From positions 745-64,744 of the forward strand of contig JAHILH010000005.1 of the NCBI GenBank assembly GCA_018897195.1: a DNA stretch of 64,000 bases, given 5' to 3'. The notes beneath the pieces were generated by a model, which was not told the origin of the DNA, made no database searches, and saw nothing but the letters and a program-made list of their open reading frames with translations. The stretch's first letter is position 1. Each line of letters begins with the position of its first letter. The translations under genes were made by a program, and so were the position numbers. Below are positions 5,484 through 61,454 of this stretch, one piece after another. This stretch comes from Patescibacteria group bacterium (lineage in GTDB: Bacteria > Patescibacteriota > Patescibacteriia > Patescibacteriales > UBA12075).

Positions 5484-5525
5484 CTCTCCCTCACCCCGAC
5501 CCTCTCCCGGCGGGGCGAGGGAGAA
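5484..5525 (+). repeat. GC-rich hairpin repeat, module A (REP-like)
   Basis: ctccctcaccccgaccctctcccggcggggcgagggag. Related copies at 8391, 37660 and 43023 (inverted). Lies just 3' of the dnaX stop. Confidence 0.8.
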
Positions 5526-5553: not shown

Positions 5554-7218
5554 CTATCCAACTACTTTCCCACCAAATGTCTTCAACAGACTATCCAACA
5601 TATCGCCACCACCATTGCCACCTTCAACTTTCTCCACTGTCTCGGTGACTTGATTCTCGCGAATAATTTGCTCAGCTACTTCATCGGTCGGATCATTGTC
5701 AAAGCTAACCTCATGTGTTTCACTGATGTTTAGGGCTTCATTGACTATGGACTCGATTACTATCGTAGAACCAAAAATTTGTTTTAGGGCATCACTAACT
5801 ACTGCCTTCACCGCCGGTTCTTCAATACGATCACGGTGGAATTTGAACTTAAAAAATAATTTCAAAACTCCATTCTCAACAGCACCGGGAACACAAGCAC
5901 GTAAGACAAAACTCAAAGAGTGATTGTTTTTTTGCACCACCGCTAAAACATCATTCCATTTGGACATCATTTGTTGACTGCTAAAATTAACATTATCGCC
6001 CTGAGCATTAACCACTTGTACTGAATTTGGTTTCCGGGTTGGCTCTTGCCCCGTTTTTAAACCACTACCTGTGCCACTATTATCCGTAAAAACCGGGGCT
6101 GACATAGTTGGCGTTGAACATAATTCAATAATCGCCACCTCCACTGGTAATTGGATTATAAAACTTTCCTTAATTTCATTGCCAGCTTTAGTGAATTTTT
6201 CGATTGCGTTGATAACGCGACCAACCTCAATTTCCTTCAAAATTTTACTAATTTTCACTTCCACACCTTCGCCTAGCTCCAAACCAAATTTCTCAGACAA
6301 TTTCAAATTAATTTTACCCAACATTATCTTACGCAACAACTCAATCAAGTCTTTTAAAAATCTTTTTAAATCTACACCTTCGTCCATCACTTTATTCACC
6401 AAGGCAATCGCTGAGGCGGCATCTTTCTTGACCAATAGTTCAATCAAAGCAATCGCTTCGCCAATGTCACTACGAGGAATAACTAGGTTTGCGTCTTCTT
6501 GGGAAATACGACGCTTGCCATCTTTTATGTTTTCAGCAATAGCGATGATTTGTCCAAAAACACTTTCCGCATCACGCATATGTCCTTCTGACTGACGAGC
6601 AATATCTTCAAGAACCAAGTTATCGATTTCGATCTTTTCACTATTGGCAATATATTGCAATTTCTTTACCACATCAGTAATGTTAATGCGCTTAAAATCA
6701 AAACGCTGGCAACGAGAGATAATGGTCGCCGGAATCTTGTGCACTTCAGTTGTTGCTAAGATAAAGATAACATTCTTGGGTGGTTCTTCAATAACTTTCA
6801 AAAGGGCGTTAAAAGCCGAAATGGACAGCATGTGAACCTCGTCGATGATAAAGACTTTAAATTTTGCGCCCGAAGTAGAGATTTTTGAGACCGCGATGAT
6901 GTTCTCGCGAACATTGTCAACGCCAGTGTGACTCGCTGCATCAATCTCAATTACATCCACGCTCTTGCCAAGAGTAATTGCCTCACAGCTATCGCAGGTA
7001 TTACAAGGCTCACTTTCGCCCTCCTTGCGATTGACACAGTTAATTGCCTTAGCAAAGACACGCGCAATTGTAGTCTTACCAATACCGCGTGGACCACAAA
7101 AAAGATAAGCATGGGCAATCTTGTCCTGCTCAATTTCATATTTTAAAGTAGTTTTGATGTGATTTTGACCGACTAATTCATCAAAATTCTGCGGTCGGTA
7201 TTCTCTGTATATTGTCAT
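5554..7218 (-). CDS. dnaX: DNA polymerase III subunit gamma/tau
   Basis: GPRGIGKTT Walker A, Zn module CNTCDSCEAI, DEVHML, SRCQRF. Confidence 0.92.
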   Translation of the reverse strand: MTIYREYRPQNFDELVGQNHIKTTLKYEIEQDKIAHAYLFCGPRGIGKTTIARVFAKAINCVNRKEGESEPCNTCDSCEAITLGKSVDVIEIDAASHTGVDNVRENIIAVSKISTSGAKFKVFIIDEVHMLSISAFNALLKVIEEPPKNVIFILATTEVHKIPATIISRCQRFDFKRINITDVVKKLQYIANSEKIEIDNLVLEDIARQSEGHMRDAESVFGQIIAIAENIKDGKRRISQEDANLVIPRSDIGEAIALIELLVKKDAASAIALVNKVMDEGVDLKRFLKDLIELLRKIMLGKINLKLSEKFGLELGEGVEVKISKILKEIEVGRVINAIEKFTKAGNEIKESFIIQLPVEVAIIELCSTPTMSAPVFTDNSGTGSGLKTGQEPTRKPNSVQVVNAQGDNVNFSSQQMMSKWNDVLAVVQKNNHSLSFVLRACVPGAVENGVLKLFFKFKFHRDRIEEPAVKAVVSDALKQIFGSTIVIESIVNEALNISETHEVSFDNDPTDEVAEQIIRENQVTETVEKVEGGNGGGDMLDSLLKTFGGKVVG

Positions 7219-7230: not shown

Positions 7231-7403
7231 CCGTCATCCCCGCGAAGGCGGGGATCCAGGCGCCACAGATAGTGGATACATTATTATAGAGACTAATCTA
7301 AATATAAATATTGATAATAAATAATGCTTTGTAAATTTTAATCCTCCATATACCAAAAATAATCTATGAGGTACCTGGATCCCCGCCTTCGCGGGGATGA
7401 CGG
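7231..7403. mobile_element. MITE-like element: 30-bp perfect terminal inverted repeats around a 113-bp AT-rich core
   Basis: 7231-7260 (ccgtcatccccgcgaaggcggggatccagg) is the exact reverse complement of 7374-7403. Each arm also contains its own hairpin (ATCCCCGC gaag GCGGGGAT). Confidence 0.6.
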
Positions 7404-7484
7404 GTGAAAAAAAATTGCTACATATTTAAATTGCCTAATAATTCTAATAACACAATTTAAAAATGTAGCAATTTAATAAAGATT

Positions 7485-8141
7485 TTAATTTCGCACAATA
7501 TTATCAACGGCTGCCCATTTACTATCACCCGTCTTTGGCACCAAGACTACCACTTCATCGCCAACAGTACCACGGAAATATGTCACACTAGCAGTTAAAA
7601 CTTTCAATTTAAGACCATCGGCGTTCACAATAAATGAGCCACCGCCACCTTGCTCCAAAGTACCAACCACGCGCTTGCGATCAATCGGACCGATTTGTTT
7701 GTAAACAAAAGTTCCGGTTGGTGTAATAGTTAATTTCAGAATATCACCTTCAACTAATTTTGACTTAGACGCATAATTTGCGGGAATACTGTATTGCTTA
7801 CCGTCTGGGCCAATCATATTTTCACCATCAAAGACACCTTCAACAATTTTTCCTTCACCGTCATGTTCATCCTCGCCACCCTTATTAAAGCTGTCGTCAT
7901 GAATCTGGCTGATTGCAATTTTGTCCAAATCGCCAATACCAGCAACACCGGAAATCAAATTTATCAATCTCTCGTTATTCTCTCTAGCATTTTCCAATAA
8001 TTTTTTAATCAAAACAAATTTTGACTTACTCAAAACAACCACATCCTTATCACTTTTAACATCATCGGAGTTATCACCTTCTTCAAGCTCCAAGTCGTCA
8101 ACATTGAATTCATCATCCATGTTCATGTTTGTTTCTGCCAT
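7485..8141 (-). CDS. hypothetical protein with acidic N-terminus and beta-rich C-terminal domain; last gene of the envelope operon
   Basis: 218-aa ORF with no recognisable motif. Same strand and tight spacing with the upstream genes. Confidence 0.55.
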   Translation of the reverse strand: MAETNMNMDDEFNVDDLELEEGDNSDDVKSDKDVVVLSKSKFVLIKKLLENARENNERLINLISGVAGIGDLDKIAISQIHDDSFNKGGEDEHDGEGKIVEGVFDGENMIGPDGKQYSIPANYASKSKLVEGDILKLTITPTGTFVYKQIGPIDRKRVVGTLEQGGGGSFIVNADGLKLKVLTASVTYFRGTVGDEVVVLVPKTGDSKWAAVDNIVRN

Positions 8142-8390
8142 ATATTTGTGTTTTTGCCCAGCTAATTAAACCCTCCCTTTTTATTTAATAAAACTAGGTA
8201 AATTAACTAATTTTAGTTATTTTGTGGTCACCTGGAATTTAAATATTCCTGACCATACAAAAAACTTATAGTTTTTTTATATTTATTATCTAAGATAATT
8301 TATTTTATTATCTCTAATATATACCATTTATCCAGGTTTGGCAAGAGCAAATAGCAAGGGTTTTTATGTAGTAGTATTCTCATTTCGTTA

Positions 8391-8434
8391 GACTTCCCCT
8401 CACCCCAACCCTCTCCCGCCGGGGCGAGGGAGTC
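8391..8434 (+). repeat. GC-rich hairpin repeat, module A (REP-like)
   Basis: gacttcccctcaccccaaccctctcccgccggggcgagggagtc, immediately 3' of the ATPase gene stop at 8438. Confidence 0.8.
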
Positions 8435-8437
8435 TTA

Positions 8438-10945
8438 TTAAACACTGGTTCGACGACGAATTTCCGCCTCAATAATACTGCGATCTTGGCCAAATTTGAG
8501 ACGGCTCAAAGTCTTTATTTTTTGTGCCATTCCCTCTCGCTCAATACCAGCAATCGGCCAAGGGCAATGCATGGAAAAAGGACGACTGGCCGTATTATCA
8601 ATAAGAAGTTTTGTATAAACAGAATATTTTTCAACATTTAATAAATCATACTGACTAAAGACAGGACTAAATTCTTTTTCCAAAAATTCCGCATCTTCGG
8701 TGCCAATTCTAAAACTCACCATCGAACCGACGTTACCAAAAACGGCGTCCTTAATTGTCGTGTCACCCTTATTGACCATCTGTCCGATATATTGATGAGC
8801 GATGGTTAAATTCAAACTATATTTACGCGCCTCGGACAAAATAGAGCAAATTGAATCGGTGGTAAAATTTTGAAACTCGTCGATATATAAATAAAAATCC
8901 TTACGTTGTGCTTGCGGAATATCCGTACGCGACAAAGCATTCATTAAAATTTTACTAATTATGATCATGCCCAAAAGATAGGCATTCATCTCGCCAATGG
9001 CACCTTTGGACAAATCCACCAAAAGAATTTTTTGTTTATCCATAATATCGCGGAAATTGAACGAACTATTTTGTTGGCCGATAATCGGGCGCATCGTGTC
9101 ATTGGAAATAAACTGTGTCAACTTGGATGTAATATAGGGCACGACATTCGCCAGGGCCGCATCACCACCCGCCTTCTCGGCTTCTTGCTTCCAAAAATCA
9201 ACCACAGTTTGGTCCGCACAGCGCTCTAATTTCATTTTTCGAAAAGCTGGATTAGCCAACACTTTTGGCACTTCCATTAAAGTTGAACCGGATTCTGGAT
9301 CAGACATAATCAAGAGCAAGGCATTGCGCATATATTGTTCAAAGATTGGACCACCGGTCGCCTTTAAATCGTACAACTTATCAAAAATCTTAATCATCTC
9401 ATTAATTACAAAAGTTTTTTGCTCCGGATATTTCGGATCAAACTCAATCAAATTCAAAGCCATCGGCCGTTCAATGTCCGCCGGTCGGAATAAAATAACG
9501 TTTTCTGCTCTCTCGGGCGGAATGCGGGACAAGATATCGCTTACCAAGTCACCATGCGGATCCAAAACGCAAACGCCCTCACCATTAATAATATCTTGGA
9601 CAGCCATATTGGCAATGAATTGTGACTTACCACCACCAGACTTACCAACTACATACATATGACGACGACGATCGTCACGCTTGATGTGCACGTCTTTTTT
9701 AACACCACGATGCACATTATAACCAAGATAAACCCCTTCACTTGGCGTGTCTACCGGTGCCGGGGCATGACGAGCAGTTAACCATAAAATATTCGGCGTC
9801 TCGGTGTCTTTTAGGGGTAGATGAAAAAGACTAGCCATCTCTGTTGTATTTAACAAAAATGATTTACCTTCATTAAAACGACGATAGATAAAATCATGAA
9901 TAATGCGCTTCTTGTTGCCGGTATTAATACGGCTTGCAAAGCTGTTGCCATATTCATAAGAATTATATTGACTAAAAGCACTCGACAAATTTTCTAGATA
10001 GGTTTGCGCTCGTCCCTTATCCCGCGCTGCCACCACGATGCGTAAATTTACATCCATACCCGCACGTGCATTTTTTTCTTCAATACCTTTTAGAGCCTCT
10101 TGCTCCATTACAGTTAACATTTTTTGATTCTCGGACCTATTTGCCAAAGAAGGATCAGCCGAATGAAATACATCACCCAAAAAACCTAAAATTTTATGCA
10201 AGACCCCGGAGCTAAGTGCCTCTGATAAAGATTTTTTTTGATTAGCCTTACGAACCACCTCGCTCGCCTTGTAGTGCCAAGAATTTTTTGCACTACGAAT
10301 AGTATATTGGATCGCCAAACCCTCATCTTCATCCACCTTGGACATAACATTGATCAAAGAATTTGTTGAATCAGTATCTTGCTTTAAATAAGTACGCAAA
10401 GGTAAAACAAAATGTCTTGTTGTTTTTAAAGTGCCGGCCAAAATTTCAGACTTGTGATTAAAAATATTATAATCCTTCACCTCTTCCAATGACGCGTCCG
10501 GATAATGCGCATTGATTTGTTGTTCAATATAGCGCTCTGCTCCGCGTGGGGCCACGATATAGAAATGAATCTTTTTCTTATTCGCCACAATCTCAAAAGA
10601 ATAGCTATCATTACGACCATATAACCAAGCCTTAAAACCCCGCTCCGCCCGCAAGCCACCTATAGAAGAAAAGATTGTCTCACCTTTGGCAATTTCTTCG
10701 TGCAAGGATTGAACCCGATTTGTTTCATTGCCCTGGTTATTTCCTTGTTTGTCTTGAGGTAAACGGACTAAAAAAATAACGTAACGCTGAAAAGTCTTCT
10801 GCAAATATTTTTCCCGAATTATCAAGCGCGCAATATATAAAACCAAAAACAAAACAGCAAAAGCCGCCACATACCAAAACCAGCCACTCAAATCAATAAC
10901 ATAATCGTTGTTTATATTTTGTTGTAGTCCGTAATCCATAGACAA
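8438..10945 (-). CDS. membrane-anchored P-loop ATPase of the TraD/VirD4 (type IV coupling protein)-like family
   Basis: N-terminal TM helix, Walker A VVGKSGGGKS, Walker B YLYIDEFQNF, and AHQYIGQM near the C-terminus as in T4CPs. Confidence 0.75.
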   Translation of the reverse strand: MSMDYGLQQNINNDYVIDLSGWFWYVAAFAVLFLVLYIARLIIREKYLQKTFQRYVIFLVRLPQDKQGNNQGNETNRVQSLHEEIAKGETIFSSIGGLRAERGFKAWLYGRNDSYSFEIVANKKKIHFYIVAPRGAERYIEQQINAHYPDASLEEVKDYNIFNHKSEILAGTLKTTRHFVLPLRTYLKQDTDSTNSLINVMSKVDEDEGLAIQYTIRSAKNSWHYKASEVVRKANQKKSLSEALSSGVLHKILGFLGDVFHSADPSLANRSENQKMLTVMEQEALKGIEEKNARAGMDVNLRIVVAARDKGRAQTYLENLSSAFSQYNSYEYGNSFASRINTGNKKRIIHDFIYRRFNEGKSFLLNTTEMASLFHLPLKDTETPNILWLTARHAPAPVDTPSEGVYLGYNVHRGVKKDVHIKRDDRRRHMYVVGKSGGGKSQFIANMAVQDIINGEGVCVLDPHGDLVSDILSRIPPERAENVILFRPADIERPMALNLIEFDPKYPEQKTFVINEMIKIFDKLYDLKATGGPIFEQYMRNALLLIMSDPESGSTLMEVPKVLANPAFRKMKLERCADQTVVDFWKQEAEKAGGDAALANVVPYITSKLTQFISNDTMRPIIGQQNSSFNFRDIMDKQKILLVDLSKGAIGEMNAYLLGMIIISKILMNALSRTDIPQAQRKDFYLYIDEFQNFTTDSICSILSEARKYSLNLTIAHQYIGQMVNKGDTTIKDAVFGNVGSMVSFRIGTEDAEFLEKEFSPVFSQYDLLNVEKYSVYTKLLIDNTASRPFSMHCPWPIAGIEREGMAQKIKTLSRLKFGQDRSIIEAEIRRRTSV

Positions 10946-10975
10946 TATCTTTAAATTAATTAATCATTGATTGAA

Positions 10976-13039
10976 TTATTCCACAATCCCATCTCCACCT
11001 GCAATATCATCATCCTCTAATTTACTGGTCTCCGCTCTAGTCGTTTGTGATAATGACGACTTAGTCTCATTGTCATTAGCAGTAATTGTGGAACCAGTTA
11101 ACAAAATCATAATTCTATTTTTATCATCATCTGTCGGCTTAATGCTAATGCTAAATTCAGCATTAGACTCCATGGCTAAGGCTGGTAGACGACTTATGGT
11201 CCAAGTTACCTCTCTGGTTGTCTCATTGTAATCAAGCGAGCCAACGGAAAAATTAGCCTTATTAGCAAAAGTTACATAGTCTGGCAATTTTGTTGTCACC
11301 TTAACATCACCAAGCTCGTGTAAGCTATTGCTCAAATTCCAATACACTTTATAGCTTGTTACTTGTCCAGCCTTTGGCGGGTTTGGTCCGGATCCTACGG
11401 GTACATTGTCAGCACTAAAATAACGCACCTGCTCGTTTAATTTCAAGTTACTATTAATCTTGTTAATGATTACATTGCTCTTGTTTTCATTTTTCTTCGC
11501 ATCGGTGTTATTGCTTTGATCACCAACTGCGAACTGAGCATAACTAGTAATGGCGTAACTCTTGTCTGCGGTCATCTTCTCAACATTCAAATCCATCAAA
11601 TTAATCGAAAAGTCAATTGTTCCATCTTTGTCCGGTGCAATTGATGCTAATTCCGGAATTTCATTTTTAGTCCAAATAATCATATTGCCTTTTACTTTGC
11701 CCTTGGCTGCGTCGCCCAAAGTAGTCCAGTTCAAAAAATCACCATCCAACACTGCCATCAAAACCACATCCTTCATTTCCGCATCACCGCCATTCTTATA
11801 CACCAAGGAGTAATTCAAAGTATCGCCAAAATTAATACCTTGGTCGTCGCGCTTACCATTAATTATCATGGTTAAATTTAAGTCACTTTTAATCACTGAC
11901 AGTTTCAATTCTTTAGAGTAAAATTTTACATACTTAGAATCACCAACCAATTTCTCAAAATTCAAAACTATAACCTGCTCCTCGGTGCCTTTCTTGATAA
12001 ATTTAAATTTAATAGGGATTATTTTTTCATTGGCTGTCACCTCATCAACCTGCCAAACACCTGGTCTAATAACTGAATACTTTGCCAAATCATCACCAGC
12101 TGGTGCTGTCTTAGGTTTAACAATTTCCACATTCTCATTCACCTCCTGCGAAATGCGAAAATTATTAATGAAATTATTATCACGCGCACTGAAACGAATT
12201 GTTAAGTCATTTACCTCATCAACCAAGACATTACTAGAATAGTCCAAGTCAATATTCATCCCTATATCCTTGATTTGCGTCATCGCCGAAGTTTCTTTTT
12301 TAAATTCAGATGAAAAATTTTCCGGCATATAATCCATCTTGGCTGCCAAAATTCCTGATTTGCCCTCCTCGCCAATCATAATTCCCTTGATTTTAATTTT
12401 CCCGTTCACGCCAGCCTTAACATCGCCGATATCCCAGCGTGAATTATTCTCATTCGAAGGTGGAAAAGAATCAATAAAAATAAAATTATCAGGATAAGTG
12501 ACGCTCACGACTACATTTTTCAAATTAATTGTATTGCTAGGATTGCCATAATTAATTGTATAAAAAAACTCCTCCCCAACCGTTACTTCATTTTTGGTTT
12601 CAATAGTGAAATCAACCGCGGTTGCATTCAAACCTTGATTAACAATAAATTTGTTATAAGCATAATAGCCACCGCCACCAAAACCACCCACCAAAAAAAC
12701 AAACATAAAAAACCAAAAGAAAAAACCATGCTTCTTTAAAACTTTGAATTTTTTTACATCCACCATCTTGCCATCATCATCTTGATAGATTTCATTCAAG
12801 CTCTCCTCAATCTCCGCCTCATTCGCTTCATTCTCCGGACTAAAATACTCTTCACTTCCTTCTTCACTCTCCGCCTCTTCCTCAATAATGTCTGCGACCT
12901 CCTTAGTTTCTTCCGCCTTGGCATCGCCTGGCAGATTTACTTGCGTGAATTCATTCAAGCTTGATTCGCGAAGATTGATTACAACATCGTCATCATCAAT
13001 CACCTCATCTGCTTGTTTTTTGTTTGACTTGTTAAACAT
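10976..13039 (-). CDS. single-pass membrane protein with large extracytoplasmic region of DUF11/CARDB-like beta domains (adhesin-like)
   Basis: Acidic N-terminus and a TM helix (FFFWFFMFVFLVGGFGGGG). Three repeats of the pattern ...Y.I.Y.N.g...L.dV.v...lPd...F.... Confidence 0.6.
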   Translation of the reverse strand: MFNKSNKKQADEVIDDDDVVINLRESSLNEFTQVNLPGDAKAEETKEVADIIEEEAESEEGSEEYFSPENEANEAEIEESLNEIYQDDDGKMVDVKKFKVLKKHGFFFWFFMFVFLVGGFGGGGYYAYNKFIVNQGLNATAVDFTIETKNEVTVGEEFFYTINYGNPSNTINLKNVVVSVTYPDNFIFIDSFPPSNENNSRWDIGDVKAGVNGKIKIKGIMIGEEGKSGILAAKMDYMPENFSSEFKKETSAMTQIKDIGMNIDLDYSSNVLVDEVNDLTIRFSARDNNFINNFRISQEVNENVEIVKPKTAPAGDDLAKYSVIRPGVWQVDEVTANEKIIPIKFKFIKKGTEEQVIVLNFEKLVGDSKYVKFYSKELKLSVIKSDLNLTMIINGKRDDQGINFGDTLNYSLVYKNGGDAEMKDVVLMAVLDGDFLNWTTLGDAAKGKVKGNMIIWTKNEIPELASIAPDKDGTIDFSINLMDLNVEKMTADKSYAITSYAQFAVGDQSNNTDAKKNENKSNVIINKINSNLKLNEQVRYFSADNVPVGSGPNPPKAGQVTSYKVYWNLSNSLHELGDVKVTTKLPDYVTFANKANFSVGSLDYNETTREVTWTISRLPALAMESNAEFSISIKPTDDDKNRIMILLTGSTITANDNETKSSLSQTTRAETSKLEDDDIAGGDGIVE

Positions 13040-13153
13040 ATATTTAAATTAATTTTGAATTTCCAATTTTGAATTTTGAATGAATTTTGCTGGAAATTAT
13101 AAACTTCTATATTTAATAAAATTAAAAAAACCAAAAAAAACTGAAACTAAAAT

Positions 13154-15718
13154 TTACTTTCCAATACTCAGCAACACCATCCAGTTGCGATCAACATTCA
13201 ACTTATTCCTGTAATTAAAAGATTCATTATTCTGCCATGCGACTTGCATATTAGCTGGCAATGTCAAATTACTCACAAACTCACTACCCTGTGAACCAGG
13301 TTGTTTTTGCACCAACAATTTCAAAGGCACATAACTAGAGTCATCTTCACCATTAACAATTTTTTCCCAAAATGTTTTCGGCTTCACCGGTTCAGTTTTT
13401 TGAACCTTAAAAGGTAGTCGATATCTAATTGTAATTAAAACCTGTTCACCGGGATCAACCATAGACCAGTTCGCGAAAACCGTCTTGCCCAATTCTTTAT
13501 AAATCTTAGTATTACTAATGCCGTCCATGCCAAAGGTGCCTTCACCACGCATCACATCTTCATCTTTTTTCCAAGTCTCCATTGGCTTTTCAAAAAACTT
13601 TCCATCGGGCTGACTAAAACCACTTGCACTAATTAATTCACTACCTTCTGGCACATAGACACGCATCCAATTTACATTGCGCACTCCCACATGATCTTCG
13701 CCACGAATAGCCGTATGCCGTCTTTGAATTGTCAAAGTATTAATAATACTGCCGTCTGTTTGTACTTCCTTTAGGAGGGCGATGTTTTCTTTTATTTTCT
13801 TGTCGGTTTTAAAACCGGCAATATTGGTATTTGCCACCATTAGATAATCACCATCAATATTTTGAATCAGTCCCGCCCAATCGAAATCGCTTACTAACTT
13901 TTCCAAATCCTCATCAACAAAATATGTTAAAATTTGTTTTTCATTTAAGTTTTGATAGGCCGCATTCAGGATGCGCAAAAAATCCTCTCTATTTAATTCG
14001 TTGGATGCCTTCGTTATAATCAAGTTCATCATGTCGCCAATGATTTTCTTTGGCTCATGTTTTTGTGTCTCAACTTTTACCAAAGTTGAAGTCGCCGTCG
14101 TCGTCGCCATTTCCGGCTTTTGCTCAACTATGTCTTGTACTACGTCCCAAAAATTATCACTTGTAATCACAACACCATATTTCTCAGTCAAATCAAGTGG
14201 ACCGATTATTTTCAACAAGTCATCCATTACATTCGGTGTAATTGCAATCACACCATCAACAGTTGGGCCGTTACTCTTTTCATAAAACCACATCAACTTC
14301 TTCGCCGACATCGCCCAATCCGGCCACCAGTTCGCATCCCAAAAATGCCAAAGTGGATTGACCAATTGTAATGGCTCTGGCGCGGCTACGCGCTCGAGGT
14401 AGCCAGCCTCGGTATCATAACTACCACCTTTCGGCACTTCCAAATTAATCATTTCGCCATTATGGAAATCCGCCAAGGCATAAGAACCGATAAAACCGCC
14501 ACTACCCCGCATTTCCGTATTATTCTGAAAAACAATTAAATAACGTCGGTCTTGATCAAAGCCCAAAATCTTACGCGTGCCATCAATCAGCCTCATCGCC
14601 TCATTGAATAAATTGGAAATATCAACTGAGCTCTGCTGAAAGACGCTTACCTTGTCACGATATTCATCAGGTAAATTATTCAAGTTAATTTTTTTCAAAA
14701 TGTCTCCCAACTCCACAATCTCAGCATTAGAACTATTCAAATTTTCATAAACAACATTCAAAACATCTTTCATTTTTAAATTCTGAGACTCAAACAAATC
14801 CAAGGAACCACCGATACGATTGGCAATGCTTGCCGTTAATTCACCAGCACGCAAAAAAAGATCAGCTTGTGCGGCTAACTTAATATTCTTGTTCGGCACC
14901 ACTTTGGCCAAAGCACCAAAAACCAAGCTCACATTTTTGATTTCATTTTGAGCAGTTCTAAAATTATCCGCCGCCTTATTAAAATTTTTCGTCGCTTCGT
15001 CAAAATTTAAACTTGAAACATCGCCAGAGCTATTTTTCATATCATCAACTGCTGATGCTGATACACCCAATACCTCGCCTTTAAATTTCAAAAAGTCGCG
15101 ATAGTGTAAATATGCTTTCAAGGGCAAAATTAAAACCAACAACAAAATCGCGAAAGTTGCCACTTGTCTTACAAAAGAAAAACGCAGTGCCGGAATAACA
15201 TTCCTAATATCAAATTGAAAATGCTCTTTAGCCACCTCAACAGGCACCTCCTTGTGAAGCACTGGTCGCACTGTTTGCAAATATTGATCCTTGGCAATCC
15301 GCGCCTCTCGACGAATACGTGCCCACAGAGCAACATGGTCACGGCTTTTTTTATAAGCAAAAATAAAAGTTAAAAAGAAAAAACGAATACCAAATACAAA
15401 CAGCCAACCCGTGCCATAACTAATCTTGCAAAGAAGATTAAATAAAAAATAGAAAGACAATTTCTTGTATTTCTGATGAAAAAAGAAATAATAATAACTA
15501 GAAAAATTCGGCAAAATATTTTTGAAACCAGCCAAGAATTGCTTAAAACTAAATTTAGGCAAAAGCTTTTTGAGGCTAAATTTATTTTTCTCCTTCTCAA
15601 TCCGTTTCAAAACAATCTCTTCCTCACGCTTAAAATTCGCCGCCAAATCAACCATAAAACGAGAAGCCTTTCCTCCGCCCTGAATATTTAAAGTATGTTT
15701 TTTTTTCTCAAATGTCAT
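13154..15718 (-). CDS. DUF4012 domain-containing membrane protein
   Basis: N-terminal TM helices and the NNTEMRGSGGFIGSYA motif characteristic of DUF4012. Confidence 0.65.
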   Translation of the reverse strand: MTFEKKKHTLNIQGGGKASRFMVDLAANFKREEEIVLKRIEKEKNKFSLKKLLPKFSFKQFLAGFKNILPNFSSYYYFFFHQKYKKLSFYFLFNLLCKISYGTGWLFVFGIRFFFLTFIFAYKKSRDHVALWARIRREARIAKDQYLQTVRPVLHKEVPVEVAKEHFQFDIRNVIPALRFSFVRQVATFAILLLVLILPLKAYLHYRDFLKFKGEVLGVSASAVDDMKNSSGDVSSLNFDEATKNFNKAADNFRTAQNEIKNVSLVFGALAKVVPNKNIKLAAQADLFLRAGELTASIANRIGGSLDLFESQNLKMKDVLNVVYENLNSSNAEIVELGDILKKINLNNLPDEYRDKVSVFQQSSVDISNLFNEAMRLIDGTRKILGFDQDRRYLIVFQNNTEMRGSGGFIGSYALADFHNGEMINLEVPKGGSYDTEAGYLERVAAPEPLQLVNPLWHFWDANWWPDWAMSAKKLMWFYEKSNGPTVDGVIAITPNVMDDLLKIIGPLDLTEKYGVVITSDNFWDVVQDIVEQKPEMATTTATSTLVKVETQKHEPKKIIGDMMNLIITKASNELNREDFLRILNAAYQNLNEKQILTYFVDEDLEKLVSDFDWAGLIQNIDGDYLMVANTNIAGFKTDKKIKENIALLKEVQTDGSIINTLTIQRRHTAIRGEDHVGVRNVNWMRVYVPEGSELISASGFSQPDGKFFEKPMETWKKDEDVMRGEGTFGMDGISNTKIYKELGKTVFANWSMVDPGEQVLITIRYRLPFKVQKTEPVKPKTFWEKIVNGEDDSSYVPLKLLVQKQPGSQGSEFVSNLTLPANMQVAWQNNESFNYRNKLNVDRNWMVLLSIGK

Positions 15719-15730
15719 TTACGATTTAAA

Positions 15731-16243
15731 TTATAAATTTTTAAGCCTTACGATCTCATCAGCCTTAATCTTCGCCTCTTGTTCAATAAAAAACTTATTA
15801 ACACCTGGAATAATTAAAAGCCATTTTTTTAACAGTTCAATAATCTTCCCAACTTCTAACTTCGCCTTATCTAATATGTTATTTATTTCTTTAGCCGTCT
15901 CCTCACCCTTAATTTTGAACTCTTGTTGTTTGTCCGGTGGCATTTGTATATACATATCCCGCACATCCTGTGACATAATGTCCTCAATCTCCTTCTGTCT
16001 CTTGGTATTCTGACTAGCAAAACCGCCAATCGGCTGAATACCGCCGAGCTCTCCCTCGGTTTGAATCGCATTTATCACCTCGCTGGCGGCCTGTTCCATA
16101 TCCTGTCCACCCTCAAAAACTCTCTCCCTTTCAGGCAAGTTAACTCTTTCTAGATTATTTTCTACTTCTAAGCCCCCAACAATTGATTCTTTTCTCTCAA
16201 TGTTGGCAAAATTTTTATCATCGGTCATAAGCAAAATCGACAC
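15731..16243 (-). CDS. hypothetical protein; first gene of the envelope operon
   Basis: 170-aa ORF lying 12 nt upstream of the DUF4012 gene on the same strand. Confidence 0.55.
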   Translation of the reverse strand: MSILLMTDDKNFANIERKESIVGGLEVENNLERVNLPERERVFEGGQDMEQAASEVINAIQTEGELGGIQPIGGFASQNTKRQKEIEDIMSQDVRDMYIQMPPDKQQEFKIKGEETAKEINNILDKAKLEVGKIIELLKKWLLIIPGVNKFFIEQEAKIKADEIVRLKNL

Positions 16244-26936: not shown

Positions 26937-27827
26937 ATGAAAACTCAACAAAAAATCTTCAAAATTTTATTAGTCACCGCTCTTATTCTCGCACCACTTG
27001 TAAAAGTTTCCGCCAAGGAGGCACGCATTTTTTTATCATCTGGGTATGGAGTTTATCCGGCTGGCAAGGATATAATCACCCGCTTAATTATCAACAGCGG
27101 CGGCAATGCTGGCATCAACGCTGCTGAAGGGATAATCAAATTTGATCCGAAATTTTTAAAAATTAAAAGCATCAATAAAAAACCATCAATTTTTACTCTT
27201 TGGCCTACAGAGCCAAAATTTTCTAACGCCAGTGGCACAATTGAATTTGGTGGCGGCTCCCCGACTAAATACAAAGACACAGCTGGCCAAATTTTTACTA
27301 TCACCTTTACACCTTTAAAATCCGGAAAGACTGATTTGACAATCGCCACCACTACTGCCAAAATTTTAACCGCCGATGGAATTGCTGACAACATTTTAAA
27401 AGAAAAATTTCAAAGTTTTATAACCTTTGGCAATTCCAGTGCCTTGAAATCTGCTGCATCTTTGACAAAAAAAATGTCTGGCAAAATCCTCTTACAAGTG
27501 GAAAAAAACGGTGAGGCTTGGTATGTCTACCCTACCGACAACCGTCGCTACTTCCTCGGACGTCCCGAAGATGCTTTCAATCTCATGCGCAAACTTGGCC
27601 TTGGCGTCAATCACGCCTACATAAAAAACTACAAAACCTTTCCCGCAAAAGTTCTGGGTAAAATTCTCATTGATGTCGAGGATGATGGCCGAGCTTATTA
27701 CATCTACCCAGTAGACAAAAAAGCCTACTACCTTGGTCGTCCCAAGGATGCCTTTCGCATTATGCGCGAAAAAGGCTTAGGTATTAAAAACTCAGAATTA
27801 GACAAAATTGACGATTGGGCAATATAA
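26937..27827 (+). CDS. secreted cohesin-domain-like protein with two C-terminal 45-aa repeats
   Basis: Signal peptide and a cohesin-like pattern (AAEGIIKFDPKFLKIKSI...GTIEFGGG). Duplicated motif GEAWYVYPTDNRRYFLGRPEDAFNLMRKLGLGV / GRAYYIYPVDKKAYYLGRPKDAFRIMREKGLGI. Confidence 0.65.
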   Translation: MKTQQKIFKILLVTALILAPLVKVSAKEARIFLSSGYGVYPAGKDIITRLIINSGGNAGINAAEGIIKFDPKFLKIKSINKKPSIFTLWPTEPKFSNASGTIEFGGGSPTKYKDTAGQIFTITFTPLKSGKTDLTIATTTAKILTADGIADNILKEKFQSFITFGNSSALKSAASLTKKMSGKILLQVEKNGEAWYVYPTDNRRYFLGRPEDAFNLMRKLGLGVNHAYIKNYKTFPAKVLGKILIDVEDDGRAYYIYPVDKKAYYLGRPKDAFRIMREKGLGIKNSELDKIDDWAI

Positions 27828-29499: not shown

Positions 29500-31431
29500 T
29501 TGAAATATTTATTCAAAATTCAATCCGCCGCGGCGGACAAAATTCGCAACATGTTCCTATTTCACGAAAAATATAAACACCACTATAAATGGCTGAGCGT
29601 TCTCTCTGTCATTTTTTTTACAATCATTGTGGCTGTTTTAACAACCTATTCTGTTTTTGAAAAAAAATATCAAAACCGAATTTATCCCGGTGTTTTTTTG
29701 GGCACCACTAATCTTAGCGGCTTATCAAAAAATGATGCTGCGGCTTTAATTAATCAAAAAATTGATCAGATAAATCAAGATGGTATTGTTTTCTATTACC
29801 GTACCGACAACGCCCCGCTTTATCCCCTCATCTCCTCAATAGAGGGCGATTTAGCTTATCAAATTATTTATTTTGACACGGAAAAGACTGTTAACTCGGC
29901 AATTAACTATGGCCGTAACGGGAAATTTTATAACAATCTCTTAGAAAAAATTACCGCCCTGAGTTATAAATACCAAATTGCCATGGACTACACTATTTAT
30001 GAGCAAGAAGTTGAAAAATTCCTAAATGACAATTTCAAAAGATTCGAAACACCGGCTAAGAACGCTGAGCTTATTTATAAATTAAACAAAAATGATAAAA
30101 CCGTTACTTTCGATATCAAGGATGAGACTTATGGGCAAATTATCAACATTGCCCAAGCTAAAACCACTCTACGCGATAGACTAAACACTCTCAACCAAGA
30201 ACCAATTGAGCTTAGTGCTGAAATTAACTACCCGCAAATAAACAAAACTGATGTCCTAAACATTGAGACGATGGCGCAAAAATTTTACAGCAAAGTGCCT
30301 ATTACTTTAAAATACAATATCAAAAAATGGACATTGGACGCAGACGATGTTTTAGCCTGGCTGCAACTAAAACTTGACCAAGAAGCAAAAGAAAAAAAAG
30401 TCTTCATAGGCCTAAACTCCGACAAAATTAAAGATTATCTCAAAACAACCATCGCTTCAAAAATAGACAAAGAAGCAATTGATCCCAAATTCAATATCGA
30501 AAATGGCAAAGTATCTGAATTTCAAACCGGACAAGAAGGTATCGCTCTTGATATTGAGGCAACAGCCAAAAAGATTGAATTCTTTTTAAACAGCGACGAA
30601 GAAAACAAAGAGCTTGAAGTTATCACTGAAATAAAAAAATCCCTATCAGCTGTCGAAATTGAAAATCTTGGCATCAAGGAATTACTCGGCACTGGTCATT
30701 CAAAATTTACCGGTTCACCCAAAAATAGAATTCACAACATCAAGACTGGGGCCAATGCTGTCAACGGCACCATTATCAAACCAGACGAAGAATTCTCCCT
30801 CATTGCCACACTTGGTAAGATAGACAAAGACTCTGGCTATTTACCAGAGTTGGTTATCAAAGACAACAAAACCGTTCCAGAATATGGCGGCGGTCTTTGC
30901 CAAGTCGGCACCACAATCTTTCGAGGCACCGTTGATACTGGGCTACCGGTCACTGCACGCCGTAATCACTCCTATCGTGTCTCCTATTACGAACCAGCCG
31001 GCACTGATGCAACAATCTATGACCCTTGGCCAGATTACCGATTTCAAAACGACACCAATAATCACATCTTAATTTTATCAAGAATGGAAGGCTATGATTT
31101 ATATTTTGATTTCTGGGGCACAAAAGATGGTCGTATCGCTACTTCCACCTACCCCACAATCTACAACATCGTCAAACCGGCACCAACTAAAATAATCGAA
31201 ACGGCCGACCTTGGGCCCGGAGAGAAAAAGTGCACAGAACACGCCCACAATGGCGCTGACGCCTATTTCGACTATAAAGTCACCTATCCCCTCCTAGGCA
31301 CTTCTACTGAGCCAGTGGTCAAGAACACGCGTTTCCGCTCACACTACGTTCCATGGCAGGAAGTTTGCTTAGTTGGCATTGATACCAACAAAAACAAGGC
31401 CACTTCAACTGAAACGACTATAAAAAAATAA
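29500..31431 (+). CDS. VanW-family protein, membrane anchored
   Basis: N-terminal TM helix and the VanW core YGGGLCQVGTTIFRG. The start codon is uncertain (TTG at 29500 or a downstream ATG). Confidence 0.8.
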   Translation: MKYLFKIQSAAADKIRNMFLFHEKYKHHYKWLSVLSVIFFTIIVAVLTTYSVFEKKYQNRIYPGVFLGTTNLSGLSKNDAAALINQKIDQINQDGIVFYYRTDNAPLYPLISSIEGDLAYQIIYFDTEKTVNSAINYGRNGKFYNNLLEKITALSYKYQIAMDYTIYEQEVEKFLNDNFKRFETPAKNAELIYKLNKNDKTVTFDIKDETYGQIINIAQAKTTLRDRLNTLNQEPIELSAEINYPQINKTDVLNIETMAQKFYSKVPITLKYNIKKWTLDADDVLAWLQLKLDQEAKEKKVFIGLNSDKIKDYLKTTIASKIDKEAIDPKFNIENGKVSEFQTGQEGIALDIEATAKKIEFFLNSDEENKELEVITEIKKSLSAVEIENLGIKELLGTGHSKFTGSPKNRIHNIKTGANAVNGTIIKPDEEFSLIATLGKIDKDSGYLPELVIKDNKTVPEYGGGLCQVGTTIFRGTVDTGLPVTARRNHSYRVSYYEPAGTDATIYDPWPDYRFQNDTNNHILILSRMEGYDLYFDFWGTKDGRIATSTYPTIYNIVKPAPTKIIETADLGPGEKKCTEHAHNGADAYFDYKVTYPLLGTSTEPVVKNTRFRSHYVPWQEVCLVGIDTNKNKATSTETTIKK

Positions 31432-32695: not shown

Positions 32696-32785
32696 GGAGA
32701 GATGGCTGAGTGGCTTAAAGCAACGGATTGCTAATCCGTCGTACGGGTTTATCCCGTACCGAGGGTTCAAATCCCTCTTTCTCCG
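32696..32785 (+). tRNA. tRNA-Ser (anticodon GCU)
   Basis: Acceptor GGAGAGA/TTTCTCC, anticodon arm ACGGA-TTGCTAA-TCCGT, long variable arm, T loop TTCAAAT. Confidence 0.88.
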
Positions 32786-32815
32786 CAGAAAAAAATAAAA
32801 ATCAAAATTAATTTC

Positions 32816-32902
32816 GGAGGGGTGCTAGAGCGGTTTAATAGGACAGTCTTGAAAACTGTTGAACCTTCACGGGTTCCGAGAGTTCGAATCTCTCCTCCTC
32901 CG
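32816..32902 (+). tRNA. tRNA-Ser (anticodon UGA)
   Basis: Acceptor GGAGGGG/CTCCTCC, anticodon arm ACAGT-CTTGAAA-ACTGT, long variable arm, T loop TTCGAAT. Confidence 0.88.
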
Positions 32903-32951
32903 CACTTGTAAAAAACTCCGCTACGTTGCGGATTTTTTTACAAAACGAATA

Positions 32952-33023
32952 GCTTTCGTAGTTCAGTGGATAGAACATGGGATTGCGGTTCCCAGGACTT
33001 AGGTTCGATTCCTAACGAAAGCA
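32952..33023 (+). tRNA. tRNA-Arg (anticodon GCG)
   Basis: Acceptor GCTTTCG/CGAAAGC, D arm GTTCAGTGGATAGAAC, anticodon arm TGGGA-TTGCGGT-TCCCA, T arm TTAGG-TTCGATT-CCTAA. Confidence 0.8.
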
Positions 33024-37659: not shown

Positions 37660-37697
37660 CCCCCTCACCCCGACCCTCTCCCGCTGGGGCGATGGAG
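37660..37697 (+). repeat. GC-rich hairpin repeat, module A (degenerate copy)
   Basis: ccccctcaccccgaccctctcccgctggggcgatggag. Confidence 0.7.
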
Positions 37698-43022: not shown

Positions 43023-43062
43023 GACTCCCTCGCCCCGCCGGGAGAGGGTTGGGGTGAGGGAG
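43023..43062 (-). repeat. GC-rich hairpin repeat, module A (inverted orientation)
   Basis: gactccctcgccccgccgggagagggttggggtgagggag is the reverse complement of the 8391 copy, apart from one or two bases. Confidence 0.8.
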
Positions 43063-52299: not shown

Positions 52300-52767
52300 T
52301 TAATGATTACTTTTTAATTCTAACAAGCGCTGATACTGCCACTCTCGCTCCTTTATAACCCTTGCCAGAACATCGCCTTTTTTAACATTATCTCTAATCG
52401 CTGTCGCTGCATAAATCGCCGCCACAATTGCATGACCAGGCGCATGCACCGTCGCCACCGCCTGTCCAGCCGCCCGCGCCGCGGAACGTGCCGCACTATA
52501 TTCCTCAGCATCGCGCGCCGCTGCATGTGACGCCAGAGACGCCCCACGAATAACAGCCATCTTAAATACACCCGTCTTCACCCACAAACGCCCCACCGCA
52601 ATCGCCAATCGCGGACGTTTGTCGCCTGTATATTTTTTCTCAAAATAAGGCAACGCCCGCTTCGCGCAATCACACGCCCAAATCACCAAGGTTTTCTTAT
52701 CCGTTTTCCAGGCCAATGCAGCGATTTGTTCATCTAATTCAGTTTTGACCATTATTGGTTTTTTCAT
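52300..52767 (-). CDS. Imm5-like putative immunity protein (Ala-rich helical repeats)
   Basis: LVIWACDCAKRALPYFE...PRLAIAVGRLW...AARDAEEYSAARSAARAAGQAVATVHAPGHA. This matches the family as I remember it, with no search run. The gene is locally GC-rich. Confidence 0.45.
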   Translation of the reverse strand: MKKPIMVKTELDEQIAALAWKTDKKTLVIWACDCAKRALPYFEKKYTGDKRPRLAIAVGRLWVKTGVFKMAVIRGASLASHAAARDAEEYSAARSAARAAGQAVATVHAPGHAIVAAIYAATAIRDNVKKGDVLARVIKEREWQYQRLLELKSNH

Positions 52768-52788
52768 TTTTTTAAATTAATGATTGTG

Positions 52789-53391
52789 CTACAAAAAAGA
52801 AAAAACATGACTATCGTCCGGATGAGAATCTTTTGACAATAACAATACTTCGGAATTGCCAAAATGAAATTGTGTTAAGACATTTTTCCAATCTAGCTTA
52901 TAGTAGGCAGTATAAATCATTTTACCAATATCTCCATGACAAACCAACAATACGCTTTTGCCATGACCATGATTTGAAACTTTTTCAATTATAATCTTTC
53001 CTCGTTCAACAAGATCAGGAAATGTCTCAGCACCTTCCGGATTTAAAAAATAAGTAATTGTGTCGGTCTTAATAATATCGGGAGTACACAATGATTCAAT
53101 ATCTTTGGCCGGCAAACCAGTTAGAACACCAAAATTTCGCTCAATTAATTCCAGCAAAACTTCAGGTTCTTTAACACCAATTGTCGAGGCAATAATTTCT
53201 GCCGTCTTTTTTGCTCTTTGCAATGGCGAACAATATATCGCCTCGAAATTCAAACCAGCCTCCTTAATTTCTTTCGCAAGCGCATTCGCCTGCTCAATTC
53301 CAAGGTCGGTTAATGGCATATCACGATGACCATTTAAAATACCTTTGATATTGTCTTGGTCTTGACCATGTCTGGCTAAATATATTTTCAT
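52789..53391 (-). CDS. histidine phosphatase (phosphoglycerate mutase) family protein
   Basis: IYLARHGQ RHG motif, and VCHGD later in the protein. Confidence 0.8.
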   Translation of the reverse strand: MKIYLARHGQDQDNIKGILNGHRDMPLTDLGIEQANALAKEIKEAGLNFEAIYCSPLQRAKKTAEIIASTIGVKEPEVLLELIERNFGVLTGLPAKDIESLCTPDIIKTDTITYFLNPEGAETFPDLVERGKIIIEKVSNHGHGKSVLLVCHGDIGKMIYTAYYKLDWKNVLTQFHFGNSEVLLLSKDSHPDDSHVFSFL

Positions 53392-53400
53392 AAGTTTTCT

Positions 53401-53423
53401 TGCGGAGAAGGAGGGATTCGAAA
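53401..53423 (-). other. orphan tRNA 3'-end fragment (T loop plus acceptor 3' strand); candidate att remnant
   Basis: The reverse complement reads TTCGAATCCCTCCTTCTCCGCA (T loop, T stem 3' strand, acceptor 3' strand, discriminator). No matching 5' half lies upstream. Confidence 0.5.
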
Positions 53424-53685
53424 ACTACTTTCGTGTTTTCATCAACGTCTTATAAACATTGACTTTGTTTGATATCATTGAGAAGTTAGCGACAAAACAG
53501 CTTTCTCAACTGTTCTCAAATACATTAAAATTCTCTAACCATCCTTACTGCTTTGACACAAAGTTTGCCACAATCTGTGATGAACGCAACATTGGAAGTA
53601 GTAAGGCGGGGGGGGTTAAAATTCGGAATCAAATATAAAAGGCGGGGGTATTTTATAGTGTATATACACGGCTTAGAAATAAGGA

Positions 53686-54570
53686 TTACAAAGTCTCTTC
53701 GTACGACTGCTTGATTATTTCAAAAACGTCATCAACCTCTTTTAATGTTTTTATTTTAATTCTACCCTTATAGCCCCACATGTGGGTGCTTATATCATTT
53801 ACTATTTTTTTTGGATCGTTATATTTAGGACTTCTAACTAAAACATCTAAAACGGTTTTCCCAAATTCAAATCGGATAAAACTTTTGGTTGTTCGATATG
53901 TAATACCAGTTTTCTGATTTGCCACCTCTTCAACCTCTGGCAATGCCTGAATTTTTTCTTGTAATTTATAAAAAATATCTTTTATCTCGTCTGTTGATTT
54001 ATGTCGGTTGAGATGAAAATTAATATCATAAGCTTCTTCTCCTTCAACTTCTATTTGCACAATATCTTCTTTTAATTTTTTAGACTTATTAGGCATGTAA
54101 ACATTTTCCAAGTATAAAATGTCCTGATTATACGGCACATATTTAATCAATTCCACACTATCCACTTGCTGAACTGCAATTATAGTCCGCTTGTCGAAGC
54201 CTTGAGCTACTAAAATTACACGTGGACTTGTCCAGTTAACCTTTATTTCCCTGCCAAGCTTATCGGCAACCAATAGATCAAAATGTCTTTTATTATTTTT
54301 AAGCCAATCAAAATAAAAAAGCCCCTGAACAAAGATGGCATTATCTTGACCCCATTTGTATTCAATAATTACTGGAGAATTAGTTTCATCAAGTGCTAAA
54401 GTATCAATTCGCCCATCGGTTGTTGGGTATTCAATCGACAAAAATCTCATACCCAATAACTGCTCAAGATTATCAGCAAAAAAATCCCTTAATTCGGCCT
54501 CGTTTTTAAAATGGTTGATATTAGAGTAAACTTGATTGGCTTTTTTGTTTTTGATTTGAAAAATTGGCAT
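53686..54570 (-). CDS. PD-(D/E)xK nuclease-like protein (NucS/DUF91-like N-terminus, DUF5655-like C-terminus)
   Basis: GRIDTLALDETNSPVIIEYK gives a D...ExK arrangement; 294 aa. Confidence 0.55.
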   Translation of the reverse strand: MPIFQIKNKKANQVYSNINHFKNEAELRDFFADNLEQLLGMRFLSIEYPTTDGRIDTLALDETNSPVIIEYKWGQDNAIFVQGLFYFDWLKNNKRHFDLLVADKLGREIKVNWTSPRVILVAQGFDKRTIIAVQQVDSVELIKYVPYNQDILYLENVYMPNKSKKLKEDIVQIEVEGEEAYDINFHLNRHKSTDEIKDIFYKLQEKIQALPEVEEVANQKTGITYRTTKSFIRFEFGKTVLDVLVRSPKYNDPKKIVNDISTHMWGYKGRIKIKTLKEVDDVFEIIKQSYEETL

Positions 54571-59541: not shown

Positions 59542-59550
59542 ACGCCACTA

Positions 59551-61451: not shown

Positions 61452-61454
61452 AAT

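Follow-up and report, generated by a model that had tools for sequence, protein, structure and literature searches.

Type IV coupling proteins (T4CPs) such as TrwB of R388, VirD4, TraD/TraG, DotL and Cag-beta are anchored in the membrane at their N-terminus and contain a TraG-D_C region. Their RecA-like nucleotide-binding domain (NBD) carries a Walker A and a Walker B motif, between which an all-alpha domain is inserted. We analyzed an ATPase that presents all of these traits and that is encoded in a 64-kb stretch of 38% GC (contig JAHILH010000005.1, positions 745 to 64,744; hereafter the window) from a Patescibacteria genome. Its gene is the fourth of five minus-strand open reading frames (ORFs) at 7485-16243, which a sequence-only reading had interpreted as an envelope operon. 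The protein differs from the described T4CPs by its single transmembrane (TM) helix instead of the usual two, by an extra domain of ~350 aa (DUF8128) between the anchor and the motor, and by the absence of linked relaxase, VirB4 or mating pair formation genes, both in the window and in the flanks that were sampled in relatives. It is also chromosomal, near-universal in its phylum and far more conserved than typical T4CPs.

Two catalogs of proteins from the Patescibacteria, also termed the Candidate Phyla Radiation (CPR), probably contain the same family, as judged from domain, length and lineage. The first, a survey of VirD4-type T4CP homologues, counted 5713 of them in 2918 of 3035 genomes, with about two copies per genome that are mostly distant from virB4 (only 148 of the 5713 were found near this gene); VirB4 was present in 2417 of the 3035 assemblies (80%) (PMC12102498). 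The second defined fam06764 (TrwB_AAD_bind, K06915), labeled as 'enriched', with 4095 proteins from 2083 genomes of CPR and only 30 of other bacteria; the same list gives 2026 CPR genomes for FtsK, 1985 for GyrB and 1300 for DUF4012 (PMC6744442 Supplementary Data 1). This family is already catalogued as the Pfam domain DUF8128 and, apparently, as fam06764 and the T4CP homologues of PMC12102498, the equation with fam06764 being drawn from the common TrwB_AAD_bind domain and the CPR distribution alone.

The same two-part architecture, DUF8128 followed by the motor, is found in phages. PHROG 5156 presents it (E = 2e-85), and gp156 of Bacillus phage G is 25.6% identical to the window ATPase, with an alignment over ~90% of the length (E = 1e-55). 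Phages CP-51, JL, Shanette and D6E, along with other Bacillus and related phages, also encode gp156 homologues. In phage G, gp156 lies one gene downstream of the VirB4-like gp155 and three genes downstream of the TrbL/VirB6-like gp153, whereas the window ATPase has no such neighbors. This trio of phage G genes, resembling a type IV secretion system (T4SS), was seen in record 84913-99159 of L086.

We propose, with a probability of about 0.5, that the locus encodes a core T4CP-derived translocase and a small partner, with two envelope genes inserted, and that it is not a five-gene machine.

The locus and its gene content

Along the minus strand, the five genes encode p170 (15731-16243, 170 aa), a DUF4012 membrane protein (13154-15718, 854 aa), a DUF11 single-pass surface protein (10976-13039, 687 aa), the ATPase with its DUF8128 and T4CP-family motor (8438-10945, 835 aa) and p218 (7485-8141, 218 aa). 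They are followed on the same strand by dnaX (5554-7218), which encodes the gamma/tau subunit of DNA polymerase III (NCBIfam TIGR02397, 401 bits). ORF calling recovered all five genes at the lengths that had been proposed, but the annotated starts of two of them differ: p170 is 170 aa long from a GTG start and 165 aa from the database ATG at 16228, and the ATPase is 835 aa long from a TTG start and 833 aa from the database ATG at 10939. The successive gaps measure 12, 114, 36 (30 from the TTG start) and 296 nt, which agrees with the earlier range of 12-300 nt, and 266 nt separate p218 from dnaX. All five genes are real, each presenting hundreds to thousands of homologues.

The sequence-only reading had also stated that no T4SS genes accompany the ATPase and that the locus could matter if the genome belonged to the CPR. 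The genome is indeed a CPR/Parcubacteria metagenome-assembled genome. Our Pfam scan covered 48 window ORFs (ORFs of at least 110 aa at 60825-61451 and 62896-63987 were left out) and detected housekeeping genes and a type I restriction-modification locus, with no VirB4, VirB6/8, relaxase, pilin or secretin. Within the 64-kb window the ATPase is an orphan.

The family's membership among T4CPs, its homologues in large Bacillus phages beside VirB4- and VirB6-like genes, and the repeats in the flanking gaps that resemble repetitive extragenic palindromic (REP) sequences and miniature inverted-repeat transposable elements (MITEs) might together indicate the remnant of an integrated conjugative or phage-derived element of which only the coupling protein was kept. 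We consider this scenario very improbable. The family is near-universal in CPR and extremely conserved, which is consistent with vertical inheritance, and the flanking genes Dus, CorA and dnaX are conserved housekeeping genes. Moreover, the 48 scanned ORFs include neither an integrase nor a relaxase, no GC anomaly was seen at the locus, and no relative was found in the 2.9 million viral contigs of IMG/VR.

Family assignment of the ATPase

The ATPase matched four Pfam families above, but only just above, their gathering cutoffs: T4SS-DNA_transf (31.1 bits, cutoff 20.1), TrwB_AAD_bind (22.9, cutoff 20.5), TraG-D_C (22.4, cutoff 22) and DUF87 (28.2, cutoff 23.2), the last one overlapping the T4CP matches. 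We located the Walker A motif GKSGGGKS at residue 432, the Walker B motif DEFQ at 687 and AHQY at 714, and both Walker motifs are invariant in the family alignment. A hydropathy scan identified one TM segment at residues 23-41, so that the description of a membrane-anchored ATPase with TraD/VirD4-type motifs holds. Between this helix and the motor, the N-domain corresponds to the precomputed family PF26449 (DUF8128), an alpha/beta domain of ~350 aa.

An AlphaFold2 (AF2) model was built on an alignment of 20 sequences, with a predicted local distance difference test (pLDDT) score of 62.7 overall and 75-90 in the NBD. It consists of a long N-terminal helix, an alpha/beta domain at ~50-335, a poorly modeled linker and a RecA-like domain in which an all-alpha insertion (~505-612) sits between Walker A and Walker B. 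When searched against the PDB with Foldseek, the model matched TrwB first (E = 3e-7, TMt 0.52), followed by DotL and Cag-beta and then by HerA and VirB4, and the best 14 matches were all TrwB or DotL. Structures of HerA ranked under the T4CPs (E = 5.5e-6 and 7e-3), as did those of the VirB4 C-terminal domain (E ~1e-4). The 50 matches listed include no FtsK structure, and Pfam gave no FtsK family at E <= 0.01. The check for a reassignment to FtsK came back empty, and the T4CP-family assignment made from the motifs is supported by these structural matches. The NCBIfam model of HerA scored 15.8 bits relative to a cutoff of 970, and no NurA-like neighbor of the ATPase was found.

The NCBIfam equivalog models of TraD and VirD4 yielded 34-45 bits relative to cutoffs of 250-650, which suggests that the ATPase is a divergent T4CP branch and not an orthologue of TraD or VirD4. 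Two other identities were considered and rejected. DUF8128 does not correspond to the N-terminal domain of VirB4, as the hhalign comparison with the VirB4-like gp155 of phage G aligned the P-loop region alone. Nor would the ATPase stand in for FtsK, since CPR genomes retain a separate FtsK family (2026 genomes; PMC6744442 Supplementary Data 1).

Distribution and conservation of the ATPase

More than 3800 homologues of the ATPase were detected. The best 120 are all 64-100% identical to it and all contain DUF8128 (PF26449); their source-given names are all Patescibacteria except for one generic VirD4 COG label. A phmmer search with DUF8128 alone against 1.84 billion cluster representatives returned 1578 clusters, in which the domain always begins at approximately residue 40-90 and precedes the motor in the full-length proteins (~800-860 aa).

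To compare the locus across genomes, we scanned 185,579 species genomes, obtained 486 relatives and analyzed the best 80 loci (L006-L085). The ATPase is 61-72% identical to the window copy across these 80 loci. Its median identity (64%) is followed, in the same loci, by those of p218 (59%), Dus (55%), CorA (53%), DnaX (52%) and p170 (44%). In paired comparisons, identity was higher for the ATPase than for DnaX in 62 of 62 loci, than for CorA in 29 of 29 and than for Dus in 31 of 31. These results describe a deeply conserved and near-universal orphan motor of the Patescibacteria.

Gene order in relatives

Upstream genes were counted in the 70 loci with at least 700 nt of upstream sequence and downstream genes in the 63 loci with enough sequence. 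The most common order was Dus, CorA (on the opposite strand), p170, ATPase, p218 and dnaX. Using a hidden Markov model (HMM) search, we found p170 without DUF4012 within 10 kb in 54 of the 70 loci; in 47 of these 54 the p170 gene lies within 150 nt of the ATPase gene, and the median gap between the two genes is 4 nt, with frequent overlaps. Conversely, in 13 of the 70 loci the gene directly upstream of the ATPase is DUF4012, and p170 is not found within 10 kb. The distance from DUF4012 to the ATPase is 4-81 nt in ten of these 13 loci and 216 and 1752 nt in two more, and glycan genes (GT4, PMT_2 or GH130) precede DUF4012. None of the surveyed loci has both p170 and DUF4012; the window's genome alone has the two genes together. 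In a neighbor-joining tree, most DUF4012-adjacent loci fall in one clade, and the window is sister to L006, where p170 lies directly upstream of the ATPase without DUF4012.

The 687-aa DUF11 gene was absent at this position from all 80 loci and from L094. It is found beside the ATPase only in L001-L003, which represent the window's genome, and in L095 (85% ATPase identity); in the 85%-identical relative, the DUF11 gene still precedes that of the ATPase, but both p218 and dnaX are missing. Another relative, with 76% identity, presents p170, a 134-aa gene and the ATPase, without DUF4012, DUF11, p218 or dnaX.

Insertions of unrelated genes were also observed next to the ATPase in L068 (12481-17635), L061 (6842-8693) and L014 (12535-15160), where a 963-aa surface protein with Ig, CARDB and metallopeptidase domains, an HD hydrolase and a methyltransferase are encoded. 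In this respect the locus resembles a hot spot where genes of variable, often surface-exposed proteins are inserted.

These comparisons bear directly on the interpretation of the five genes as one conserved unit, that is, a five-protein machine for envelope translocation or surface assembly, in which the motor would power export or assembly by way of DUF4012 and the DUF11 protein, or, more narrowly, an envelope-glycan step that depends on DUF4012 and is energized by the ATPase. The genes share a strand, the first four are separated by short gaps (12, 114 and 36 nt), and the tight spacing of DUF4012 and ATPase in most DUF4012 loci would fit such a step, as would the sizeable charged cytoplasmic N-termini through which both membrane proteins could contact the motor. 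Glycan genes (PMT/PMT_2, GT4, GtrA and LCP) moreover recur near the ATPase even in distant lineages. However, the five-gene order was retrieved in none of the 80 loci, p170 usually occurs without DUF4012, and the DUF11 gene is confined to relatives whose ATPase is at least 85% identical. DUF4012 accompanies glycosyltransferase genes and is listed for 1300 CPR genomes versus 2083 for the ATPase family, and unrelated genes occupy the same spots in relatives. To our knowledge, there is also no precedent for a T4CP that energizes the export of glycans or adhesins. The dedicated machine advanced by the sequence-only reading is not supported, and we regard either version as improbable. Likewise, we found no conserved single five-gene operon: the genes are co-directional, but their order is not kept and hairpins intervene.

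The upstream partner p170

By the synteny above, the partner conserved upstream of the ATPase in relatives is p170. It is a small soluble protein whose N-terminal half is acidic and poorly conserved and whose C-terminal ~70 aa are conserved, with the motif FK..GE.TA.KIN.LL.KAK...KII.LIK.WL..IPGVNKFFLEQEAKIKADEI; this C-terminal module is probably helical. Its 471 detected homologues all bear the name hypothetical. p170 matched no family of Pfam, NCBIfam or PHROG, and a search against the PDB returned nothing beyond an OmpH-like match at E = 0.5. Because p170 and DUF4012 exclude each other upstream of the ATPase in relatives, we asked whether p170 could be a part of DUF4012 that has become detached; searching the N-termini of DUF4012 proteins with an HMM gave no match, and this identity was rejected.

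Known coupling ATPases operate with small acidic or helical partners, such as Cag-beta with CagZ and DotL with IcmSW, DotN, DotY and DotZ. By analogy, p170, and possibly p218, may be partners of this type. Searches for sequence homology between p170 or p218 and T4CP adaptors found none, and a candidate identity of p218 as a DotY-like adaptor was discarded (PDB profile match at E = 0.35, which is noise).

p218 and the linkage to dnaX

Downstream of the ATPase, p218 was found in 46 of the 63 loci and dnaX in 58. In 14 loci of a single clade that lack p218 (L042, L044, L046, L050, L056, L057, L062, L063, L074, L076, L079, L081, L083 and L084), the stop-to-stop frames of dnaX and the ATPase are at most ~100 nt apart, and in eight of these loci they overlap by 1-30 nt. 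This suggests that the two genes are co-transcribed, and perhaps translationally coupled, in the p218-less clade. A DUF11-like ORF was also seen ~5 kb downstream in these 14 loci.

The neighborhood was then compared in distant ATPase loci, whose N-domain is 31-43% identical to that of the window. p170 is kept in L088 and L090 (38-43% N-domain identity), and p218 and dnaX are found downstream of the ATPase in L088 and L091. In L092, p218 accompanies GtrA and dnaX on the opposite strand, at a distance of ~5 kb from the ATPase. The linkage to dnaX persists where the N-domain is only 33-43% identical. Small proteins flanking the distant ATPases of L091, L092 and L090 presented no homology to p170 or p218 with hhalign. 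Across loci, p218 tracks dnaX at least as much as it tracks the ATPase, and both are frequent but separable neighbors of the ATPase.

At least 7953 homologues of p218 exist, and neither Pfam domains nor PDB sequences matched the protein. As the sequence-only reading had noted, its N-terminus is acidic (14 D/E in the first 35 residues). The AF2 model (pLDDT 69 overall, 74-88 in the folded part) presents a disordered acidic segment (1-33), a long helix (39-77) and two five-stranded barrels (98-151 and 155-216), both with OB-fold topology and a helix between strands 3 and 4. Nearly all Foldseek matches were S1, cold-shock or OB domains with marginal E-values (1e-3 to 1e-1), including RNase R, RNase II, bS1, Unr, the Rho N-terminal domain and aIF1A. 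Residues F104, Y117, Y123, K126, K128, K136, F145, K148 and R155 are invariant, and these aromatic and basic positions fit a nucleic-acid-binding surface. On the basis of this model, p218 is a probable tandem-OB-fold protein that would bind single-stranded nucleic acids.

It is possible, then, that the ATPase is an exapted nucleic-acid motor that works independently of any T4SS, as a T4CP-derived ring acting with p218 on single-stranded DNA (ssDNA) or RNA. Its possible roles would be to draw imported host DNA or RNA into the cytoplasm, or to act on DNA at the membrane in the course of replication or division. The modeled similarity of p218 to S1 and cold-shock RNA- or ssDNA-binding domains is in favor of this alternative, and so are the adjacency of ATPase, p218 and dnaX in most loci, the close or overlapping frames of the p218-less clade, the persistence of the dnaX linkage in distant loci and a conservation above that of DnaX. 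T4CP homologues are also found in more genomes than VirB4, and exaptation of these proteins is left open by the authors of the survey (PMC12102498). In addition, a cultivated Patescibacterium takes up host RNA by a route that is unresolved (bioRxiv 10.64898/2026.06.21.733656). However, p218 is bracketed by hairpins and tracks dnaX in L092, and it may belong to the replisome side, with no relation to the ATPase; its Foldseek E-values are marginal. The adjacency to dnaX is lost in the 76%- and 85%-identical relatives, and CPR keep a canonical FtsK (2026 genomes), which makes an FtsK replacement unlikely. Finally, the deletion of comEC left the viability of S. epibionticum unaffected (PMC12857230). 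Taken together, we view the exapted motor as doubtful, but far from negligible.

The DUF4012 and DUF11 proteins

The second gene of the locus encodes a DUF4012 membrane protein, as had been recognized from the sequence: the domain (PF13196) was detected at residues 388-528 with 91.8 bits (cutoff 28, E = 8e-26), and the hydropathy scan revealed two hydrophobic segments (103-121 and 186-204). The N-terminus is basic, predicted to be cytoplasmic and carries a conserved SRF.V.L motif. The large domain is probably extracytoplasmic and presents many invariant polar and aromatic residues in the alignment (FQNNTEMR.SGGFIGSY, WHFWDANWWPDW). A search against the PDB returned coiled-coil noise only.

DUF4012 is listed as a CPR-enriched family (PMC6744442). 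The family is reported from a Bifidobacterium exopolysaccharide (EPS) cluster (PMC6744442 citing PMC5412050). With the DUF4012 proteins of Gram-positive EPS and capsular polysaccharide (CPS) clusters, for instance in Bifidobacterium longum 105-A, the window protein shares the Pfam domain and, in relatives, the association with glycosyltransferase genes, but its gene is wedged between p170 and the ATPase. The protein is most likely an envelope-glycan factor inserted between these two genes.

The DUF11 protein presents one TM segment (105-123, hydropathy scan), an acidic N-terminus predicted to be cytoplasmic and a beta-rich extracellular region. It had been described as a single-pass protein with three DUF11/CARDB-like domains. 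The single TM segment and one DUF11 domain (residues 148-221, 36.1 bits, cutoff 24.6) are confirmed; at the sequence level the three domains are not, as only one is significant and self-BLAST revealed no internal repeats. A second beta domain is weak (DUF7619, 18.6 bits, under its cutoff) and the TIGR01451 repeat scored 23 relative to a cutoff of 24. Judging from its distribution, the DUF11 gene appears to be a recent, lineage-specific insertion. DUF4012 is a clade-specific neighbor that belongs to a glycan cluster, and both DUF4012 and DUF11 are bystanders of the ATPase.

A proposed role for the ATPase

We propose that the ATPase would form an NTP-driven ring of the hexameric type on the cytoplasmic side of the membrane. 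This ring would recruit or translocate a polymeric substrate, for which nucleic acid is the likeliest candidate, and its most plausible role would be that of substrate receptor and energizer of the chromosomal monoderm-type T4SS that is encoded elsewhere in most Patescibacteria. In this scheme p170 would be a dedicated adaptor or regulator of the ATPase, and the DUF4012 and DUF11 genes located between them would reflect a secondary insertion or rearrangement in the window lineage. A motor that feeds a T4SS is favored by its family membership, the gene cluster of phage G and a pilin-linked paralogue. The latter is a distant DUF8128 protein of L087 (8001-12579); the gene after it encodes a protein of 673 aa in which one segment resembles T4SS_pilin but narrowly misses the Pfam cutoff (E = 1.2e-5). 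This paralogue may correspond to the second T4CP-like copy per genome of the literature.

Several observations weigh against a coupling role. Coupling proteins usually evolve fast, and a conservation above that of DnaX is atypical for them. The scores of the ATPase are far below the TraD and VirD4 equivalog cutoffs, its model is of moderate confidence (pLDDT 62.7) and DUF8128 is without an identified structural relative. No T4SS component was found in the sampled flanks of relatives, and the tight linkage to dnaX points to a housekeeping role related to the chromosome or to nucleic acids. T4CP homologues are present in more Patescibacteria genomes (96%) than VirB4 (80%), and in S. epibionticum a T4CP homologue, possibly a different paralogue, was non-essential while the T4SS genes were essential (PMC12102498).

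The report of host-RNA uptake (bioRxiv 10.64898/2026.06.21.733656) prompted us to consider a further possibility, namely a coupling protein run in reverse. The ATPase, its small partner and possibly p218 would then import ssDNA or RNA of the host through a T4SS-like or pilus conduit. If true, this would account for three features of the protein, namely a distribution in CPR about as wide as that detected for GyrB, a conservation above that of DnaX and the usual lack of linkage to virB4. We treat reverse import as a long shot and retain the T4CP-derived translocase with p170 as our working interpretation.

Hairpins, repeats and other features of the window

A REP-like, GC-rich hairpin of 37 nt (8396-8432, minus strand), identified from its RNA fold, lies immediately 3' of the stop codon of the ATPase and is probably a transcript-end or stabilizer element. 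The hairpin CTCCCTCGCCCCGGCGGGAGAGGGTTGGGGTGAGGGG (at most three mismatches) is found in four copies in the 38%-GC window, against 0 expected: 5487-5523, 8396-8432 and 37661-37697 on the minus strand and 43025-43061 on the plus strand. The three minus-strand copies are located just 3' of a same-strand stop codon, and the copy at 43025-43061 is found between two minus-strand genes. These copies look like a family of REP-like terminators or stabilizers. On the other side of p218, an element resembling an intrinsic terminator (7404-7474, minus strand) consists of a 22-bp AU-rich stem followed by U8. With hairpins on both of its sides, p218 is probably its own transcription unit. A scan for promoter and terminator consensus sequences yielded counts no higher than in shuffled sequence.

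Directly upstream of dnaX, we identified a MITE-like element of 173 nt (7231-7403) with GC-rich inverted arms of 37 nt that are 92% complementary (RNA fold z-score of -13.6). One arm translates to GIPAFAGMT, and the similar peptide IPAFAGMT is found within the long N-terminus of the DUF4012 ORF of L054, which suggests that this repeat also inserts into coding regions. The presence of the signal recognition particle RNA or another known RNA upstream of dnaX was considered and rejected: nothing reached the Rfam gathering score, and the sub-threshold matches were the MITE-like hairpin itself.

Elsewhere in the window, a cohesin-domain protein is encoded at 26937-27827 and a VanW/PG_binding_4 protein at 29500-31431; VanW-type proteins are a CPR-enriched envelope family that has been treated together with DUF4012 (PMC6744442). 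Three tRNA genes are clustered at 32696-33023. The region 52300-63987 constitutes a defense-type neighborhood. It comprises an Imm5-like immunity protein (52300-52767) with a NucS/DUF5655 protein, the type I restriction-modification genes hsdR (54773-57571) and hsdS (59551-60831), an AbiEii-like AAA_21 ATPase (61455-62705) and an abiF RNA motif (62850-62885, 45 bits).

Implications for the Patescibacteria

Patescibacteria are unable to make nucleotides, lipids and most amino acids and must exchange macromolecules with their host. The ATPase described here appears among the most widespread CPR-enriched families and under stronger constraint than a subunit of the replisome, and it is usually encoded away from the T4SS that it would be expected to serve. 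The consulted text of PMC12102498 and PMC6744442 does not describe the DUF8128 domain, p170, the OB-fold/dnaX neighborhood or a conservation above that of DnaX. Relative to it, the conserved partner p170, this neighborhood, the exceptional degree of conservation and the role of DUF4012 and DUF11 as bystanders appear to be new. Our analysis corrects the attractive but unsupported picture of a five-protein envelope machine. The p170-ATPase unit, its OB-fold and dnaX neighbors and the DUF4012 and DUF11 bystanders offer handles for structural work and for the genetics of those few Saccharibacteria that can be cultivated.

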